The notes beneath the pieces are model-generated. The model ran no database searches and was not told where the DNA came from. It worked only from the letters and a program-made list of their open reading frames with translations. A program made the translations under genes and the position numbers. Of a stretch of 64,000 nucleotides of DNA, positions 3,837-38,482 are shown one piece after another (positions within the stretch are counted from its first letter, which is position 1; each line of letters opens with the position of its first letter). This DNA comes from an uncultured Gammaproteobacteria bacterium (GTDB lineage Bacteria > Pseudomonadota > Gammaproteobacteria > SZUA-229). The stretch covers positions 114,883 through 178,882 of the forward strand of contig CAWECN010000011.1 of NCBI GenBank assembly GCA_963807625.1. Direction: 5' to 3'.

Positions 3837-5813
3837 TTAATGCTTATTCACCCAGACCGGTGGCATCGGGCAGTCCAGGCAGCTGGCGATAGCACGTGTA
3901 AGCTCATAAGCTTTTATCGTCACTTCACCATCATGCGATATACAGGCGACACATGCCTGCAAGAACCGCTTTTTGATCGGCGGTTTTAAAAACTCCAGTT
4001 CATCTATCGCCTCATTCAGACTATCCAGTGATATCGCGTCTTTCGGTAACAGTGTTAATGCCACCGCGCTTATCGAACGTTTGGCGTTATCAAACGCCTG
4101 CAATGCCTGTTGTGAATCGGCGTGTTCAAGATATGCCAGTAAAGACAGCATCAGTTCACTGGCATGTTTTGCTGAACCCAGCACGAAATATTTTGCCAGC
4201 GGTTTCTTACGATGACCGTATTGCTCATCCAGGTGCTGCAGCACGACCCGCTGGATGATCCATTCCCGAAGGTCTACTTTTTTGTCCGCGCTGATCAACT
4301 GCTGCACACACTGTTTGAATCGTTGGTACTGCTCCACGGTCATCTCCCTGAGCGTGGGCAATGTGAGATCGATCAGTGGCAAAGTTTGCGTATCTGCCAG
4401 CTCAGCTACAGCATGCTGTACCTGCCTCACGTTACTGGTATGTAGCTCGCCGATCACTTCGTTTAAAACCTCGTATTGCCGGCTATTGACCTGGTCTTCT
4501 TCAGCTAACAGTAACGCCAGTATTAAAGCCTGCGCACCATAAGGGTTCTCCGCATTGGAGATAACCTGCTCAGGCATTTGTTTGTGCCATAATTGTGCAG
4601 CGCGAACCTGCTCCGTGGTGACCTCACCTATATTGTCTAATGCGTTCAACGCATCATTGATGGCAACATCCATATTTGCACCGAGGCCAACACCGGCTAC
4701 TACACTCGCAGCAATGTCCTTTTTACGACTACGCTCAGCTTCTTTCTTATTGCTATCATCACTGTCACGATAAGCCTTTCTTTCATCAAGAATATATTTA
4801 CCATCCCATCCTGGCTGGATACGCAGGATGCGCTGCTTTAAGGGCGGATGGGTAGAAAAAGAAAACAGGTTAAAAGTGGTATCTCCCAGGGCGAAATATG
4901 CGTGGCTGTATTCATCGACAGAAGCCGCGAGGATGGCTGATCCGGGGATGGCTCCGCCAATTTTTTTCAGCGCATCGGCGATACCTTCACTGCTACGGGT
5001 AAACTGCACTGCCGATGCGTCGGCCAGAAATTCGCGTTGCCGGCTGATAAGCGATTTGATCCAGTTACCAAAGAATGTACCGGTATAACCCACCACTGCC
5101 AGCGCGCCACCGATAGCAACGATTAACAATATGGCCTGGCCGCCGCCTTTACTATTGCGTGAGGTACGGACATAGCGTAGCGAACGCAAGATCATCCGGC
5201 CCAGCATGCCGATCATCAATATACCATGCAGCACAGCTATGAGACGTATATTTAACCGCATATCACCATTGAAGATATGGCTGAACTCGTGCGCGATAAC
5301 GCCCTGCAGTTCATCACGGTTTAATCGCTCTAATGCACCTTGGGTAATACCGATAACTGCATTGGTGGTTTTCCAGCCAGCCGCAAACGCATTGATTCCC
5401 TGCTCGTTTAATATGTAGACCTGCGGTACCGGTGTACCGGAAGCGATCGCCATCTCTTCGACGACATTCAATATTTTTTTATGCAACGGATTACTGCTGC
5501 TGCGCGGGATGATGACACCACCCAGGTGTTGCGCGATCGCAGAACCACCTGAAGAGAGCTGTACCAGCTTGTATAAACTACCTAGTGTTATGAATCCGAT
5601 AATCGCTGCGCAGAGCAGTATACTCAGGTTGCTATCGTATACCTGTTCGAGTTCGTCAAGTGACAAAGTCAGTGCAGAAAATTGCACGAAGTACATGAAC
5701 TCGAAAACGATAACATTACTCAGCGCCAGCAGAGCCATGACGGCCAGAACAAACAACAGCACTAACAGGCTGGTACTACGCCTCGCCGAATCCTGTGCTT
5801 CGAAGAAATTCAT
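3837..5813 (-). CDS. M48 (HtpX/Ste24-like) zinc metallopeptidase with C-terminal extension
   Basis: MNFFEAQDSARR start, NVVEEMAIASG, INAFAAG, ELQGVIAHEFSHI (HExxH), SRQREFLADASAVQFTR, THPPL; directly downstream of lemA. Confidence 0.9.
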   Translation of the reverse strand: MNFFEAQDSARRSTSLLVLLFVLAVMALLALSNVIVFEFMYFVQFSALTLSLDELEQVYDSNLSILLCAAIIGFITLGSLYKLVQLSSGGSAIAQHLGGVIIPRSSSNPLHKKILNVVEEMAIASGTPVPQVYILNEQGINAFAAGWKTTNAVIGITQGALERLNRDELQGVIAHEFSHIFNGDMRLNIRLIAVLHGILMIGMLGRMILRSLRYVRTSRNSKGGGQAILLIVAIGGALAVVGYTGTFFGNWIKSLISRQREFLADASAVQFTRSSEGIADALKKIGGAIPGSAILAASVDEYSHAYFALGDTTFNLFSFSTHPPLKQRILRIQPGWDGKYILDERKAYRDSDDSNKKEAERSRKKDIAASVVAGVGLGANMDVAINDALNALDNIGEVTTEQVRAAQLWHKQMPEQVISNAENPYGAQALILALLLAEEDQVNSRQYEVLNEVIGELHTSNVRQVQHAVAELADTQTLPLIDLTLPTLREMTVEQYQRFKQCVQQLISADKKVDLREWIIQRVVLQHLDEQYGHRKKPLAKYFVLGSAKHASELMLSLLAYLEHADSQQALQAFDNAKRSISAVALTLLPKDAISLDSLNEAIDELEFLKPPIKKRFLQACVACISHDGEVTIKAYELTRAIASCLDCPMPPVWVNKH

Positions 5814-30210: not shown

Positions 30211-31647
30211 ATGCCCGAACACTTCAAACTTCTAGTCCCGGGTGCAACTGCCGCCGGTACAGTAAACGTTACCGCCCCTTTCGACGGCGCACAGATCGCA
30301 ACTATCGAAACCGGTGACACCAAAGCCGTTGAAACAGCTCTGCAAACTGCCCACGAGCTATTCGCCAACAAAAAGAACTGGCTCACTGCCGAACAGCGTA
30401 TAAACGTTTTTGAAAAGGCAGCCGGTATCATGCAGTCCCGCTTTGACGAGCTCGCCATCGAAGCGGCACGTGAAGGCGGCAAGCCGTTACCGGATTCAAA
30501 AGTCGAAGTCGCCCGTGCCATAGACGGCATGAAAAACTGTATAGAAGTGATACGCAGCGAACATGGTGAAGAGATTCCCATGGGAAAAAATGCTGTCTCG
30601 ATGAATCGCCTCGCTTTCACTACCCATGAGCCGATCGGTGTAGTCGTCGCAGTGAGCGCATTCAACCACCCACTCAATCTTGCCGTACACCAGATCGGGC
30701 CGGCCATCGCAGCGGGATGTCCGGTCATCATAAAACCAGCGGAAGACACCCCGCTCTCCTGTTTTCGTCTGATCAATATCTTATACGAAGCCGGCCTGCC
30801 AGAAACATGGTGCCAGGGCATCGTCACCACGGATCATGAAGCTGCCACACAACTGGTATCAGATAACCGTGTCGGCTTTTTCAGCTTCATCGGCAGTGCC
30901 CGTGTCGGCTGGATGTTACGTTCGAAACTGGCACCCGGTACACGCTGCGCACTGGAGCATGGCGGCGTAGCGCCTGTTATCGTTTCACACGATGCAGACA
31001 TGGACGACACCGTTGCATTATTATCAAAGGCCGGCTTCTATCATGCCGGCCAGGTATGCGTCTCGGTGCAACGGGTATATGCAGAAAAAACTATCGCACG
31101 CGCTCTCGCGAATAAGATTGCCGATGCCGGTAACAAGATGAAGATAGGCGACCCGACGTTAGCCGATACAGAGATCGGGCCACTCATCAGGCATGCCGAG
31201 ACCGACCGTATCGATGAATGGGTACAGGATGCGATCGACAAAGGCGCCGAGCTTATCTCTGGCGGTAAAAAAGTATCTGACAGCTGTTACCAGGCAACCG
31301 TACTGTTTAACCCGCCGGCTGATGCCATCATCTCGCAGAATGAGATCTTTGGACCTGTCATCTGTGTCTATGAGTACGATGAGATAGATGAAGCCATCCA
31401 GCAGGCGAACAGTTTAGACGTTGCTTTTCAGGCTGCTGTTTTCTCAAAAAACATCGACACCTGCATGTATGCATTCAAACAGCTTGATGCATCTGCCGTC
31501 ATGGTCAACGAGCACACCGCCTTCCGGGTAGACTGGATGCCATTCGCCGGGCTGAAACATTCAGGTCATGGCGTCGGCGGAATTCCGCATACATTCAGAG
31601 ACATGCAAATCGAAAAAATGATGGTAATCAGGTCACCTTCTTTATAG
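30211..31647 (+). CDS. NAD(P)-dependent aldehyde dehydrogenase
   Basis: SAFNHPLN, IKPAEDTP, FIGSARVG, LEHGG, GQVCVS (catalytic Cys), EIFGPV, FAGLKHSG. Confidence 0.93.
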   Translation: MPEHFKLLVPGATAAGTVNVTAPFDGAQIATIETGDTKAVETALQTAHELFANKKNWLTAEQRINVFEKAAGIMQSRFDELAIEAAREGGKPLPDSKVEVARAIDGMKNCIEVIRSEHGEEIPMGKNAVSMNRLAFTTHEPIGVVVAVSAFNHPLNLAVHQIGPAIAAGCPVIIKPAEDTPLSCFRLINILYEAGLPETWCQGIVTTDHEAATQLVSDNRVGFFSFIGSARVGWMLRSKLAPGTRCALEHGGVAPVIVSHDADMDDTVALLSKAGFYHAGQVCVSVQRVYAEKTIARALANKIADAGNKMKIGDPTLADTEIGPLIRHAETDRIDEWVQDAIDKGAELISGGKKVSDSCYQATVLFNPPADAIISQNEIFGPVICVYEYDEIDEAIQQANSLDVAFQAAVFSKNIDTCMYAFKQLDASAVMVNEHTAFRVDWMPFAGLKHSGHGVGGIPHTFRDMQIEKMMVIRSPSL

Positions 31648-31680
31648 AATCAGGAAAAGCCACTCACTAAAGGCAATAAC

Positions 31681-31911
31681 ATGGAAGTTAGAACCACACT
31701 AAAATCAGGTCTAAACGGAACCAGAAACTACCTTCAACAATATGGCGATCAACTGGTATGCGTAAGATGTCGGTATGACATGTAAAAAAAACGCCATACA
31801 ACCATAGACTTAATCGTAGACGAACAGGACTGGACACAGGGGGCCAACGTAAGGCCCCATCAAGTAGTAACCAATAAGAAATGTCCGTGTGCCTTTAAAA
31901 ACACAATTTAA
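31681..31911 (+). pseudogene. Nonsense-interrupted remnant of a small conserved protein
   Basis: MEVRTTLKSGLNGTRNYLQQYGDQLVCVRCRYDM*KKRHTTIDLIVDEQDW...; in-frame TAA at 31783-85, with the same frame staying open to 31911. Confidence 0.6.
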
Positions 31912-31924
31912 TCCTGTTAAATAG

Positions 31925-31986
31925 AGCTAACAAGACAATTAACAGCGACCGCAAAAAAGCGCGTCGCGTTATTTCAAACGTTAGGT
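31925..31986 (+). mobile_element. Integron attC site 1
   Basis: R'' AGCTAAC, 5-nt spacer, L'' AAT[T]AAC[A]GCGAC pairing with GTCGCGTTATT, 6-nt spacer, R' GTTAGGT; 62 bp. Confidence 0.85.
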
Positions 31987-32018
31987 GTACAAAAACATTA
32001 ACAACGGGGATCACTGTA

Positions 32019-32663
32019 ATGATAAAAAATACTTCCATGATACTAGTAATAAATATATTTTTGTTTTCAGGTATGGCAAATGCTGAAAAAGTAAACGCTG
32101 ATGTGCAAGATGGTACAAACGGGACGAAAAGCGATCCAACCAGTGATGTTGCAGATACCGCTCAGCAAGAAAAAAATACAGTGTCTAATGAAATAAGTTC
32201 AGGTACAGCAAAACCTGGCCAAAGAGAAAAGACAAATTCTCCTACTGACAGTCCCATCGGGGCGTCCGAAGAAAAGCTTGTTAGAGATAAAGCAGTAGAA
32301 GAGGTTGACAGAGAAATGGCTGCACGTGTTAGCGCGGCAAAAAGAGAAGCTGCCAGAGAGATGGCTGCAAGTGTCAGAGCAGCAAAAAGAGAAGCTTACC
32401 GAGAAATGGATGCACGTGTTAGAGCAGCAAGAGAAGAAGCTGCCAGGAAAATGGCGGCAAGTGTTAGAGCAGCAAGAGAAGAAGCCGCCAGGGAAATGGC
32501 TGCACGTGTTAGAGCAGCAAAAGAAGAAGCTGCCAGAGAAATGGCTGCACGTGCAAAAGAAAGAGCTGCTAGAGAAAGAGACTATCATGAACGCCTGGAT
32601 AGATACGAAGCTGAACGCAAGCATTTCAAAGAAGAAAGAGGCTATTATCGAGCTCCATACTAG
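32019..32663 (+). CDS. Gene-cassette ORF: secreted protein with 15-aa tandem repeats
   Basis: Signal peptide ending SGMANA; five REMAARVRAAREEAA-type repeats; bounded by attC1 and attC2. Confidence 0.8.
   Translation: MIKNTSMILVINIFLFSGMANAEKVNADVQDGTNGTKSDPTSDVADTAQQEKNTVSNEISSGTAKPGQREKTNSPTDSPIGASEEKLVRDKAVEEVDREMAARVSAAKREAAREMAASVRAAKREAYREMDARVRAAREEAARKMAASVRAAREEAAREMAARVRAAKEEAAREMAARAKERAARERDYHERLDRYEAERKHFKEERGYYRAPY
32310..32555 (+). repeat. Coding 45-bp tandem repeat (5 full units plus 1 partial)
   Basis: Units start AGRRARATGG.. at 32310, 32355, 32400, 32445, 32490 and 32535. Confidence 0.9.
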
Positions 32664-32671
32664 CTTCATTC

Positions 32672-32728
32672 GCCTAACGATTAGCAATAGCGGACGTAAA
32701 GAATATGCCGCTTAGCATAGCGTTAAAA
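32672..32728 (+). mobile_element. Integron attC site 2 (imperfect)
   Basis: R'' GCCTAAC just after the ORF stop; GCAATAGCGG / CCGCTTAGC arms; R' GTTAAAA; 57 bp. Confidence 0.7.
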
Positions 32729-32748
32729 GTCGTAATGATTAATAAACC

Positions 32749-33033
32749 ATGAAGTACAAGATCGAAAAAAATGAACATGGCCTTGATATTTCTGTTACTG
32801 ACGTAAAAGGCAAAAAGGATGAACTGATAGAAGCATTTCAGGAATGCCAGGAAGGCCGCTGTTCTTGCCCAACAGAAGAATACAAAAAACTCGATTGTTT
32901 AGACATTGAGGATAACAGTGGGAATATAAAGTTAAGTCTTAGATCAAAAGATGGATTGAATCTAGATAAAGATGAAATTAATAAATGCTTAGAATTCACC
33001 AAAAAAAGAATTGTACAGAAGGATGGTGGATAA
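32749..33033 (+). CDS. Gene-cassette ORF, hypothetical 94 aa with C-x4-C-x-C-P motif
   Basis: AT-rich ORF filling the space between attC2 and attC3; FQECQEGRCSCPTEE. Confidence 0.75.
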   Translation: MKYKIEKNEHGLDISVTDVKGKKDELIEAFQECQEGRCSCPTEEYKKLDCLDIEDNSGNIKLSLRSKDGLNLDKDEINKCLEFTKKRIVQKDGG

Positions 33034-33035
33034 TC

Positions 33036-33099
33036 TTCTAACAATTCGTTTAAGTTGTGATCTTCGCTTCGATCCTGCTACTTAACTAAAACATCAGGC
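33036..33099 (+). mobile_element. Integron attC site 3 (R' core mutated)
   Basis: R'' TTCTAAC, 5 nt, L'' GTT[T]AAGT, L' ACTTAAC, 6 nt, then ATCAGGC in place of GTTAGGC; 64 bp. Confidence 0.75.
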
Positions 33100-33246
33100 C
33101 TTTTCTGTATCCAAAACAATGTTCAAAAAAATGGATAAAATCGTTATTTAGAAACATGCAGATCGCCAAACTAGAATTTAAAGCTCGGCCTCAGCAATAA
33201 CTAGAAATCCTCCTGATAGTTTGTATGAACGCCATATCTTGACCAC

Positions 33247-33273
33247 AAAAAAACCTTCGCGAGAAGGTCTTTT
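33247..33273 (-). terminator. Intrinsic terminator downstream of deaD
   Basis: Minus strand ACCTTC-TCGC-GAAGGT followed by a T-run. Confidence 0.7.
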
Positions 33274-33406
33274 ATGTTACTCCAGCATAGCGGCTAAGGT
33301 TACACCATTTCAAGCATTCTATCTCTCCCACATCTAAGATATACAGTCGCTCGGAACCACCAGGTCACGACTATCGTGAGGCACTAAAATATTTAACTTA
33401 TTCCAG

Positions 33407-35314
33407 TTATATTTTTCGGGCTTTCTTCTTTAAGCCTAGTTTACGCTTGCCTTTATCATCACCTCGCGCACTATCCCTGCTTCGCCCTTTCGCCTGGCTC
33501 TTTTCTTTTGCTCCGCCGGCAGATATTTGATCACCGGTTTTTTTGCCAGTAGACTTGCTGGATCCAGCACCTTTGTTCATTGACGAGATCTTTAACTGCT
33601 GGCCTGACACCCAGACTTTTTTCAGAGTGTAGAGCAGCTCTTTAGGCATGCCTTCGGGCAGGTCAACCGTACTGTGATCGTCATAGATACTGATGCGGCC
33701 TATGTACTTGCTCTCTATATCTGCTTCGTTTGCGATGGCACCGACGATATTACCGGGTTTGACCTGGTGATCATGCCCTACTTCGATACGGAAGCGTTCC
33801 ATACCTTCGTCGATTGCACTGTCTCCTGGCTGGCGCTCTCTTCTTGGGGAGCGCTCACTATTGCCCCGTTCTGCCCTGTCACGACGAGGGCGATCTTCTC
33901 TTCCACGACTATCTCTATTTCGGTCACGACCTTGACCACCTTTGTCCCATTCCTCACGGCTTTTCGATGATCTCTGAGGTTTGTTTGTTAACAGGAATTC
34001 GTTATCACCTTGCATCATCTTTGCAAGTGCAGCAGCAATTTCTAGCGCTGGAACATTATGTTCATGTGAATATTGCTCGATCATTTGAGAGAACATACCT
34101 ATATCTTCATTCTCCAGTGCATCAGAAATACGCTGCTTGAACTTATCGATACGTTTGTCATTAATCACCTCTGTGGAAGGCAGTTCCATGATCTCGATCT
34201 TCTGCCTGGTTGCTCTTTCAATGTCATTGAGCATACGCTTTTCACGTGGTGCAACAAACAGGATAGCATCACCGTGGCGGCCTGCACGGCCAGTGCGCCC
34301 GATACGATGCACGTAAGATTCTGTGTCATGTGGCACATCGTAATTCACTACGTGAGAGACTCTTTCCACATCAAGTCCACGAGCAGCCACATCGGTAGCC
34401 ACCACGATATCCAGCTTCCCTTTCTTAATATCGTTAACCGTACGTTCACGCATATTTTGCGCGATATCACCGTTAAGGGGAGAGGCTGCATAACCGCGAG
34501 CTTTAAGCTTGTCTGCCAGTTCTACCGTTGAATTCTTTGTGCGCACAAAAATAATCATGGCATCAAAATCTTCTGCTTCGAGAATACGGGTTAAAGCATC
34601 CAGCTTATGTATACCACTGACCGGCCAGAAACGCTGGCGAATGGTATTAACTGTCGTGGTTTTTGTCTTGATCGTAATCTGTTCTGGGTCATTCAGATAC
34701 TTGGTCGCGATACGACGTATCTGTGTCGGCATGGTCGCTGAAAACAGCGCGATCTGCCTGTCGCCAGGTGTCTGTTCGAGTATCCACTCAACATCATCGA
34801 TAAAACCCATTCTTAGCATTTCATCGGCTTCATCCAGTACCAGTGCATTTAGATTAGCAAGCTTCAGTGTACCTTTACGAATATGGTCCATCACTCGACC
34901 GGGCGTACCTACGATGACATGGACGCCACGTTTCAAAGCACGGATCTGGCCACTGTAATCCGAGCCGCCATAAACTGGCAGCACATGAAAACCTTTCATG
35001 TAGGTGGCATATTTCTGAAACGCTTCGGCGACCTGAATCGCCAGTTCGCGCGTTGGCGCCAGCACCAGGAGCTGTGGATCTTTTTGCTTTAGATCCATGT
35101 TCGAAATCAATGGCAATGCAAAGGCGGCAGTCTTACCGGTGCCGGTTTGCGCCTGGCCGATAATGTCTCTGCCTTCAAGCAACAACGGAATAGTCTGCGC
35201 CTGGATAGGCGAAGGAGATTCATAACCTACTTCGTTTAATATTTTAAGAAGTGATTTATTTAACGCTAAATCATTGAACGTGACTGTCACGTCAGCGCTG
35301 GTGTCTGTGCTCAT
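33407..35314 (-). CDS. deaD: DEAD-box RNA helicase DeaD/CsdA
   Basis: Q motif GYESPSPIQ, AQTGTGKT, PTRELA, LDEADEM, SAT, ARGLD, HRIGRTGRAGR, DbpA RNA-binding domain. Likely start ATG 35314 (MSTDT). Confidence 0.95.
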   Translation of the reverse strand: MSTDTSADVTVTFNDLALNKSLLKILNEVGYESPSPIQAQTIPLLLEGRDIIGQAQTGTGKTAAFALPLISNMDLKQKDPQLLVLAPTRELAIQVAEAFQKYATYMKGFHVLPVYGGSDYSGQIRALKRGVHVIVGTPGRVMDHIRKGTLKLANLNALVLDEADEMLRMGFIDDVEWILEQTPGDRQIALFSATMPTQIRRIATKYLNDPEQITIKTKTTTVNTIRQRFWPVSGIHKLDALTRILEAEDFDAMIIFVRTKNSTVELADKLKARGYAASPLNGDIAQNMRERTVNDIKKGKLDIVVATDVAARGLDVERVSHVVNYDVPHDTESYVHRIGRTGRAGRHGDAILFVAPREKRMLNDIERATRQKIEIMELPSTEVINDKRIDKFKQRISDALENEDIGMFSQMIEQYSHEHNVPALEIAAALAKMMQGDNEFLLTNKPQRSSKSREEWDKGGQGRDRNRDSRGREDRPRRDRAERGNSERSPRRERQPGDSAIDEGMERFRIEVGHDHQVKPGNIVGAIANEADIESKYIGRISIYDDHSTVDLPEGMPKELLYTLKKVWVSGQQLKISSMNKGAGSSKSTGKKTGDQISAGGAKEKSQAKGRSRDSARGDDKGKRKLGLKKKARKI

Positions 35315-35613
35315 GTTAATACCTGGCAATACATGCCTGAAAATAGATGGATGGAAAACGCCGTGATCTACCTTCCCCAGGTAAATCGATAGGCCCTGCC
35401 ACCTCATCCAGGCAGACCTTACAGGTCCCCAGCATATTGTGAATTTGAGCCGAAAGAAGACGAACTGTGTGCATTATCCACTATATTAGAGAAATATAAT
35501 ACTCTTTTTATAGAAAAAACACGCAGTTACATAAAATTGAGCCTCAAATAGCGGTACACTTAACCGCCTGAACTCAATATTTTCGGCTAAACAGACCGCC
35601 CTGATTAATTCTC

Positions 35614-37834: not shown

Positions 37835-38395
37835 TTATTTAAAAATAAACTTGAAACCCAGAGAGATCATCGATAAATCAGGATTGTCAGAATCGAAAGT
37901 TTCCCACTCTACTGCCACTAATAATTCCTTGGTGAAAGCGTAGGATGCGGCAAGTGCATAGGCTACATCAGTGCCATCATTCGTGATTTCAGTAGCATTT
38001 ACACGCAGGTCGGCATCCCAGTTTAATACCCCGAGCTTAGCTATCAGATTAGTTTTTTTAGTTACCGGATACATTGCTACCGCATAAGCACCAATGCCTT
38101 TCATGCTGACCGCAGCACTATCATACCCGCCAGAATTATTTTCAAGAGCACCAACACTGGCTTCTGCAAAATTATAAACACTTGCCTCGGCAGCAAAATA
38201 TTTATTGAACGAATAACCACCATAAAGCTTGGTACCCGTTCCATCGTCATCAAGTTGACCGCCACCTAACGACGTCAGATCCGCTTTATAAGAAGCGGTA
38301 CCCACACCAAAGCCAATATATGGATCAGCTACAGCCATTGATATCGAAGTCAGCGATGCTGAAACCATTATGAGTGATATAACAAGAAATCTCAT
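37835..38395 (-). CDS. Outer-membrane beta-barrel protein (OmpA transmembrane-like)
   Basis: Signal peptide, KLYGGYSFNKYFAAE, alternating beta-strands, C-terminal LGFKFIF. Confidence 0.85.
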   Translation of the reverse strand: MRFLVISLIMVSASLTSISMAVADPYIGFGVGTASYKADLTSLGGGQLDDDGTGTKLYGGYSFNKYFAAEASVYNFAEASVGALENNSGGYDSAAVSMKGIGAYAVAMYPVTKKTNLIAKLGVLNWDADLRVNATEITNDGTDVAYALAASYAFTKELLVAVEWETFDSDNPDLSMISLGFKFIFK

Positions 38396-38482
38396 AGTTA
38401 CCCCTTAATTTTTTGTTATGGGTTTATGTGTGCACCCGGTAAATAATAGCATTAATTTTCAACGATACATCGGTGGAATATA

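Follow-up and report, generated by a model that had tools for sequence, protein, structure and literature searches.

How did two small open reading frames (ORFs) and three imperfect palindromes come to stand between an aldehyde dehydrogenase (ALDH) gene and a convergent gene for the RNA helicase DeaD in an uncultured gammaproteobacterium? The interval in question lies in a stretch of 64,000 nucleotides (hereafter the window: assembly GCA_963807625.1, contig CAWECN010000011.1, positions 114,883 to 178,882; GTDB lineage SZUA-229). It measures 1.76 kb, all of its ORFs and palindromes read on the + strand, and its GC content (0.40 at 31648-33164) is lower than that of the genes on its two sides (0.53 for ALS and ALDH, 0.48 for deaD), as had been noticed in an earlier note on this DNA, made from the letters alone. 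We consider it very probable that the interval holds a genuine integron cassette array without an integrase, i.e. a cluster of attC sites lacking integron-integrase (CALIN), and that it is the relic of a chromosomal integron situated just downstream of ALS-ALDH in this group of bacteria.

The CALIN category, as employed by IntegronFinder (Cury et al. 2016, PMC4889954; Néron et al. 2022, PMC9024848), is applied where two or more attC sites cluster within 4 kb with no neighbouring intI, and Cury et al. sought intI pseudogenes in 10 kb on each side (PMC4889954). Such clusters are common (2961 in RefSeq complete genomes, with ~6 attC sites on average) and have been proposed to be degraded integrons (PMC4889954; PMC9024848). 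In the window, two attC sites located 1.1 kb apart were recovered by a home-built covariance model at E 1.7e-7 and E 1.3e-3, and tblastn across the 64 kb revealed neither intI nor an intI pseudogene in their vicinity.

attC sites and cassettes of the array

From established integron biology it would be expected that the integrase (IntI) folds the bottom strand of an attC site, recognises its R and L boxes together with the bulged bases, and cuts the core between G and TT, with cassettes being inserted and excised as circles. The three candidate sites, the two cassettes and the two ORFs (which the earlier note had placed correctly, bracketed by three attC sites) are the following:

31925..31986, + strand: attC1, 62 nt; AGCTAAC-AAGAC-AAT[T]AAC...GTTATT-TCAAAC-GTTAGGT
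31981..32722, + strand: cassette 1, starting with TTAGGTG... and ending on the G of the attC2 core; carries ORF1
32019-32663, + strand: ORF1, 214 aa; signal peptide and 15-aa Ala/Arg/Glu tandem repeats
32672..32728, + strand: attC2, 57 nt; GCCTAAC-GATTA-GCAATAGC...GCTTAGC-ATAGC-GTTAAAA
32723..33093, + strand: cassette 2; carries ORF2
32749-33033, + strand: ORF2, 94 aa; four-cysteine protein
33036..33099, + strand: attC3 (terminal), 64 nt; TTCTAAC-AATTC-GTT[T]AAGT...ACTTAAC-TAAAAC-ATCAGGC

All three sites read R''-L''...L'-R' on the strand of the ORFs. The canonical 5- and 6-nt spacers claimed for attC1 and attC3 can be read directly from the sequence, attC2 has spacers of 5 and 5 nt and an L box in the form of an internal loop, and the extra-helical bases previously reported consist of one additional base on the L'' arm in 3/3 sites, the arm that also carries it in aadA1, cmlA, aacA4 and the remaining class 1 sites that we read. 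The full attC consensus, R''(RYYYAAC)-spacer-L''...L'-spacer-R'(GTTRRRY), is present in attC1; attC2 conforms to it with a loose L box (R' being GTTAAAA), and attC3 (bulged L box perfect) conforms except for its R', which is ATCAGGC as opposed to GTTRRRY. The R''-L'' portion of attC3 matches the attC of aadA1 at 17/18 nt (TCTAACAATTCGTTYAAG), and attC1 is 86% identical to an attC at a related locus (L012:11322-11382; related loci and contigs carry L numbers throughout). When folded as single-stranded DNA, attC1 adopts an R box, an unpaired spacer and a bulged L stem (z -2.1 and -2.6), attC2 weakly assumes the same shape (z not significant), and attC3 forms no R box (z not significant), which it is unable to close because its core is ATC and not GTT. 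The heptamer (A)ATCAGG occurs at 31626, 31650, 31703 and 33093 of the window, that is, at the 3' end of the ALDH gene, just past its stop codon, in the pseudogene described below and in the 'decayed core' of attC3.

Two covariance models were used for detection. The first (R1) was built from nine attC sites read from the class 1 integrons of plasmids R100, pYLMB51a, pF3, pCMG3-2-1 and pCW-CTX-M-15A (sites of aadA1, aadB, aadA2, aacA4, cmlA, estX, ereA2, dfrA16 and blaCARB-2), and contained no sequence from the window or its relatives; the variable loop was trimmed for the seed, since MAFFT misaligned the L' boxes of long sites when run on full-length sequences. The second (R2) comprised 12 natural class 1 sites and 13 sites from relatives, aligned with Infernal and likewise free of window sequence. 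Both strands of the window (64 kb, hence 128 kb) were searched. With R1, attC1 was the top match on either strand (16.5 bits, E 0.18), attC2 ranked sixth (9.1 bits) and attC3, devoid of the GTT core, was not recovered in the window by this class-1-only model; in 284 kb of relatives' loci, R1 found 13 sites (E 0.001-0.5), every one of them on the + strand and downstream of ALDH. With R2, the three claimed sites took ranks one to three in the window, all on the + strand (attC1: 38.2 bits, E 1.7e-7; attC3: 23.2 bits, E 1.3e-3; attC2: 12.4 bits, E 0.8), and the best background match scored 10.3 bits. The latter (38377-38421, + strand, E 2.7) displays an R box only (ATATAAC...GTTATGG) and is probably a chance match. 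As R2 includes homologues of attC1, the 38 bits obtained by this site partly reflect homology; attC2 would be convincing only in context, through its strand and its position in the 85-nt gap between ORF1 and ORF2. attC is not represented among the families of Rfam, none of which gave a relevant score for 31-34 kb. A simple regex and pairing scan for R''/L''/L'/R' was dropped as unspecific: it picked out six palindromic loci across the window, and attC2 was not one of them.

The start of each window cassette matches the complement of its own R'' at 7/8 positions, in agreement with the near-complementarity of the leading core pointed out earlier. This would be weak evidence alone, given that the RYYY/RRRY consensus by itself would produce about half of such matches, and it agrees with what is seen in relatives: in L025, L004 and L008 the cassette starts are exact (7 to 9 nt) in 4/6 cases (the others being 7/8 and 5/7), with L025 showing the exact reverse complement of the own R'' in 3/4 cassettes (GTTAGATGC/GCATCTAAC, GTTATAT/ATATAAC and GTTATGG/CCATAAC) and 5/7 in the fourth.

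ORF1 contains 5-7 tandem units (32291-32577, 45-nt period, 15 aa, AAREMAARVRAAKEE-like), and there seems to be one unit more in the homologues of L092 and L094. Candidate relationships to HC2 or TolA were rejected, as the matches were of low complexity and compositional. ORF2 belongs to a family of 148 homologues of ~92 aa with invariant C33, C38, C40 and C80, for which no sequence match was found in Pfam, NCBIfam or the PDB; its predicted model is confident (ββαββα, predicted local distance difference test score 85) and has no significant structural neighbour. The ORF1 cassette (90% aa identity) is found in the same interval of L102 next to different neighbours: upstream stand two cassettes, one colicin-immunity-like and one DUF3784, both of which have an attC of their own, and downstream a DUF2007-like gene takes the place of the window's ORF2. 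A member of the ORF2 family (67% identical) is flanked in L086, an unrelated metagenome contig, by attC sites scoring 39.7 and 26.3 bits, as part of a four-attC array (3891-5249; cassettes DUF3024, ORF2-family, YgaP-like transmembrane and 112-aa) located between ruvA and an alpha-amylase gene; as no intI was present within the 8 kb examined, L086 is another CALIN. The occurrence of ORF1 with other neighbours in L102, and of the ORF2 family between attC sites in L086, means that both genes behave as integron cassettes, a cassette being a promoterless ORF with an attC that is encountered as a unit in different arrays.

The ORF1 cassette ceases to be homologous to L102 and to metatranscriptome contigs at the L' box of attC2 (window 32716, L102 5680), 6 nt before the canonical G|TT, and on the upstream side the homology begins inside attC1 (31949). 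To judge from the sequence, these breakpoints suggest recombination within attC sites or mosaicism of the attC family.

The ALDH-deaD locus in relatives

The earlier note described the array as integrase-less. A tblastn search with IntI1 and with the integrase of a relative (L001) gave nothing below E 1 in the window and nothing near the array; the description thus holds for the 64 kb that the search covered, and does not extend to the genome. No attI or intI remnant is left in the window, which is short of a complete integron (intI, adjacent attI, and a cassette promoter, Pc, upstream of the cassettes).

To place the array among its relatives, species-representative genomes were scanned with the ALDH protein. 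The scan returned 80 loci, the closest of which belong to metagenome-assembled genomes (MAGs) of uncultured Gammaproteobacteria or 'Thiotrichaceae' (76-90% identity). The interval 3' of ALDH proved highly variable: the stop codon is followed by an integron integrase or by a gene for a 115-aa protein (p115), and in L015 the stop codons of ALDH and deaD are a few bases apart with nothing between them (an empty site). L001 encodes a 331-aa tyrosine recombinase (minus strand, starting 17 nt after the ALDH stop) that is 45% identical to IntI1 over 330 residues and matches TIGR02249 'integron integrase' over the full profile (418 bits; cut-off, 265); next come an attI-like region containing two direct repeats, a GNAT cassette and the end of the contig. 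Two further loci preserve remnants, namely L012 (IntI residues ~192-327 only, beside at least 7 attC sites) and L025 (intI codons 1-45 only, then attI, …CCAATTG|TTAGATGC, and at least 4 cassettes), and three (L004, L008 and L102) have attC-bounded cassettes at the same place without intI. The ALDH tree places L001 together with the window, L102, L008 and L002 in a well-supported clade of seven rows. The comparison of this interval among relatives, which had been proposed as a check and lends the reading its firmest backing, thus yielded an intact intI with attI, two remnants and an empty site; the presence of the integrase or of its remnants at the same spot implies that the locus is the integron platform of the lineage and that the window carries an integrase-less version of it.

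The recurrence of one locus across relatives, with an integrase of the TIGR02249 subfamily, is what characterises a clade with a sedentary chromosomal integron, and is seen here. A further mark of this type is an array of over 19 attC sites or its occurrence in every genome of a species; we found at most 7 attC sites within 8 kb of L012, and many contigs end at the locus. Among the 27 close relatives scanned, 17 were without attC sites downstream of ALDH and without intI or p115 at the locus; a further three, counted apart as giving no clear picture, are L002 (p115, and no attC in a 0.5-kb tail) and L010 and L011, whose contigs end inside ALDH. The contigs of L010, L011, L001 and L009 break inside ALDH or at most 1.5 kb after it, which is consistent with assembly failure at repeated attC sites. 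In L004 (11184-11270), an attC of the attC1 family is split after L''/stem by a 52-nt perfect palindrome resembling a miniature inverted-repeat transposable element; this attC is preceded by a cassette with the toxin-antitoxin genes vapBC in opposite orientation and followed by katG.

The surroundings of the array in the window are as follows:

30211..31647, + strand: aldehyde dehydrogenase gene, left backbone flank (Pfam Aldedh, E 2.5e-121; synteny in L001-L026 and L102)
31681..31878, + strand: p115 pseudogene (tblastn, 64% identity to residues 1-67 of the intact L004 gene)
33100..33164, no strand: segment between attC3 and the conserved right edge, 65 nt; 72% identity to L091, 13-nt indel
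33165..33406, no strand: conserved right flank (blastn to L008 and L102; homology resumes at 33165)
33407..35407, - strand: deaD RNA helicase gene, right backbone flank, convergent with the array (Pfam DEAD, Helicase_C, DeaD_dimer and DbpA)

From left to right, the order is hence ALDH, the p115 fragment, attC1, cassette 1 with attC2, cassette 2 with attC3, a terminator-like hairpin and the convergent deaD. The hairpin (33246-33275, AAAAAAACCTTCGCGAGAAGGTCTTTT) is of bidirectional type and stands between the array and deaD. The p115 gene is intact in L004 (9472-9819) and L002, truncated at codon 50 in L102, and in the window has an in-frame TAA at 31783 and ends after ~codon 66 (its only family signal is a weak DUF5710 match). 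While the earlier reading of three attC sites and two cassettes stands, this truncated, nonsense-bearing pseudogene had been overlooked. Moreover, the three sites are real, but attC1 is not the end of a cassette of its own: it begins 46 nt after the end of the pseudogene and has no cassette body, and is therefore an orphan site left by a deletion in which that body was lost. The left junction of the array (31878/31879) does not coincide with a GTT and has the appearance of a simple deletion.

The same comparisons bear on an alternative origin, in which intI never resided at this spot and a trans-acting IntI placed cassettes 3' of ALDH or p115 through secondary GTT sites (attG-type), thereby creating the CALIN de novo. 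This route to a CALIN is among those listed by Cury et al. (2016, PMC4889954), and it finds some footing in L008, where the third codon of p115 contains the start of the first cassette (GAAG|TTA), whose match to its own R'' is 7/8, as well as in the ALDH tree, in which p115-type and intI-type loci are interleaved. For the window we nonetheless regard it as unlikely, since the left junction described above lacks a GTT, and since the closest clade member, L001, has IntI in the same interval with the array in the same orientation; furthermore, no clean empty-site comparison is at hand, as L002 and L004 lose homology right after p115.

Decay, conservation and cassette turnover

The earlier note called the array stranded and in the course of domestication. 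The arrangement of the window recurs in independent metagenome contigs from several samples (L091-L094, ORF2 89% aa identity: ALDH, pseudogene, attC1, ORF1, attC2, ORF2, attC3 and deaD), and the window's own sequence is present in sediment, microbial-mat and salt-marsh metagenomes. Against L091, a contig ~94% identical to the window and carrying the same array, we measured the following identities:

p115 pseudogene: 0.90
attC2: 0.91
attC3: 0.875
segment after attC3: 0.72
ORF1: 0.944, with a ratio of nonsynonymous to synonymous substitution rates (dN/dS) of 0.43
ORF2: 0.93, with a dN/dS of 0.20

Both ORFs are under purifying selection, and the divergence of attC2 and attC3 keeps pace with that of the pseudogene beside them: the R'' of attC2 has AAT in L091 in place of its invariant AAC, and the R''-L'' of attC3 bears six changes in 19 nt there. 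The decayed ATC core of attC3, noted previously, is common to the window and L091 and is therefore old. The combination of sites that change at the pseudogene rate with ORFs that are kept indicates that the sites are drifting, as expected of a stranded array becoming ordinary genes, and the notion of domestication is borne out in this respect. The earlier note had also stated that its reading would fall if the attC model gave no significant hits and relatives carried the same interval vertically; the second does apply to very close relatives, whereas the attC model does match, and vertical inheritance in such relatives is compatible with a fixed relic. With no intI or attI in cis, a last core that is not GTT, attC2 and attC3 evolving at the neutral rate and both ORFs conserved, the array behaves as a set of fixed chromosomal genes. 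In the absence of Pc, the cassettes would most likely owe their transcription to read-through out of the ALS-ALDH genes, which have the same orientation, or to a promoter within the conserved attC1/leader region, and transcription would probably stop at the hairpin at 33246-33275. Metatranscriptome contigs ~93% identical to the window cover ORF1 and then run into L102-type sequence, which means that a relative's ORF1 cassette is transcribed.

Two observations are unlike simple decay. The first is that attC1 and the 32-nt leader of ORF1 (31925-32018) show 1 change in 94 nt relative to L091, as compared with differences of 10% in the pseudogene and 9-12% in attC2 and attC3; this conservation may reflect an exapted promoter or leader, or may be due to chance. 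The second is that the cassette content of the window and L102 differs, which implies cassette turnover after these lineages split. Both are accommodated by an alternative in which the array is a live satellite, its cassettes being excised and reshuffled in trans by an intI located elsewhere in the same genome, so that the CALIN would act as a functional reservoir. Sister lineages with different cassettes (the window and L102 have 93% aa identity in ALDH) and an attC1 that is almost invariant relative to L091 are what it would lead one to expect, and about half of CALINs lie on replicons that encode IntI (Cury et al. 2016, PMC4889954). Logan contigs likewise show a depth spike and loose ends at attC1, from which it follows that these communities contain further copies of attC1-family sequence. 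What speaks against such activity is the pseudogene-rate change of attC2 and attC3 with the loss of key bases in L091 (AAC to AAT, and the six in the R''-L'' of attC3), the terminal ATC core in both lineages, and an array order that is the same at ~6% divergence. Excision joints at the cassette borders were not seen in assembled metagenome contigs, which can't show absence and thus offer weak evidence. On balance we deem this alternative improbable.

A broader form of the argument would make the ALDH-deaD interval a still-active integron hotspot, in which a trans-acting IntI exchanges cassettes such as ORF1 and also inserts them at secondary, non-attI GTT sites in backbone DNA (as the L008 junction could be read), CALINs being created de novo and not only by loss of the integrase, and attC1 with its leader being co-opted for expression. 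We give this combined scenario only a small chance. That the three palindromes might be chance hairpins, terminators or another repeat family, as the background score of attC2 and the non-significant folding of attC2 and attC3 could insinuate, is extremely improbable, because they are the top three model matches, on one strand and at cassette spacing, the R''-L'' of attC3 is nearly that of the aadA1 site, and attC1 is homologous to attC sites in arrays that stand next to intI in relatives.

We therefore retain the reading of the array as the integrase-less relic of a chromosomal integron, and consider it alongside the points that weigh against it. With respect to the sites, attC2 taken alone is at background level (E 0.8 under R2), R2 includes relatives' sites homologous to attC1, and the independent class 1 model recovers attC1 at E 0.18 only and misses attC3; published CALINs, unlike this array, were called with IntegronFinder's model and not with a home-built one, and one of our sites is marginal. 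With respect to history, the loss of intI in this lineage is deduced from relatives, the window itself having no intI or attI remnant, and attC1 is nearly unchanged relative to L091 (1 change in 62 nt). With respect to expression, the RNA evidence consists of contigs from a ~93% identical relative and not from the window strain, and a promoter scan of the window performed at chance level and identified no promoter.

Parallels and meaning

Like the CALINs of the literature (PMC4889954; PMC9024848), the window array is co-oriented, contains few cassettes of unknown function and has no intI nearby, and its terminal attC without R' resembles the array edges reported by Cury et al. (PMC4889954); unlike them, its first attC is an orphan beside a truncated backbone gene. 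The closest natural parallel is the chromosomal integron of Xanthomonas, in which intI is found downstream of ilvD genus-wide, full-length in some species only and elsewhere truncated or absent, and in which X. citri pv. citri possesses a two-cassette CALIN fixed in the sublineage, implying inactivation before diversification (PMC12444791). In both cases the platform occupies one conserved locus across a clade, intI is intact, truncated or absent depending on the lineage, and a small CALIN with the same two cassettes has become fixed in a sublineage (PMC12444791). The present system differs from Xanthomonas in its host (uncultured marine-sediment Gammaproteobacteria) and locus (ALS-ALDH/deaD), in an intI that is convergent with and abuts the upstream gene, and in the interleaving of p115-type and intI-type loci in the tree.

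The attC architecture is that of class 1 integrons (R'' RYYYAAC, 5-nt spacer, L'' with one extra base, L', 5-6-nt spacer, R' GTTRRRY), from which the array of the window otherwise departs by being chromosomal (and not on a plasmid or transposon), by the lack of resistance genes, intI1, attI1 and Pc, and by an attC3 without GTT. With the sedentary chromosomal integrons of Vibrio (superintegrons with homogeneous attC sites of the Vibrio cholerae repeat type), the clade's element shares a chromosomal, lineage-wide distribution, attC sites that group into families by sequence (attC1 is similar to L012:11322 and L004:11184), toxin-antitoxin cassettes (vapBC in L004) and a majority of cassettes of unknown function; in contrast to Vibrio, its arrays are small, with no more than 7 attC sites in the 8 kb read, and the integrase is absent from the window.

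Taken as an element, the array is of a well-known kind, ordinary for the field, and leaves the knowledge of integrons unchanged. It does provide a well-documented case of the death of a chromosomal integron, in which one clade offers, at one locus, an intact intI-attI, two independently truncated integrases and several integrase-less arrays, and it speaks for the idea that CALINs derive from integrons by degradation and that their cassettes can turn into ordinary chromosomal genes. Furthermore, it extends integron platforms to the poorly known uncultured Gammaproteobacteria of marine sediments, and brings to light two conserved cassette families of unknown function, a secreted protein with 15-aa repeats (probably expressed) and a 94-aa protein with four cysteines.

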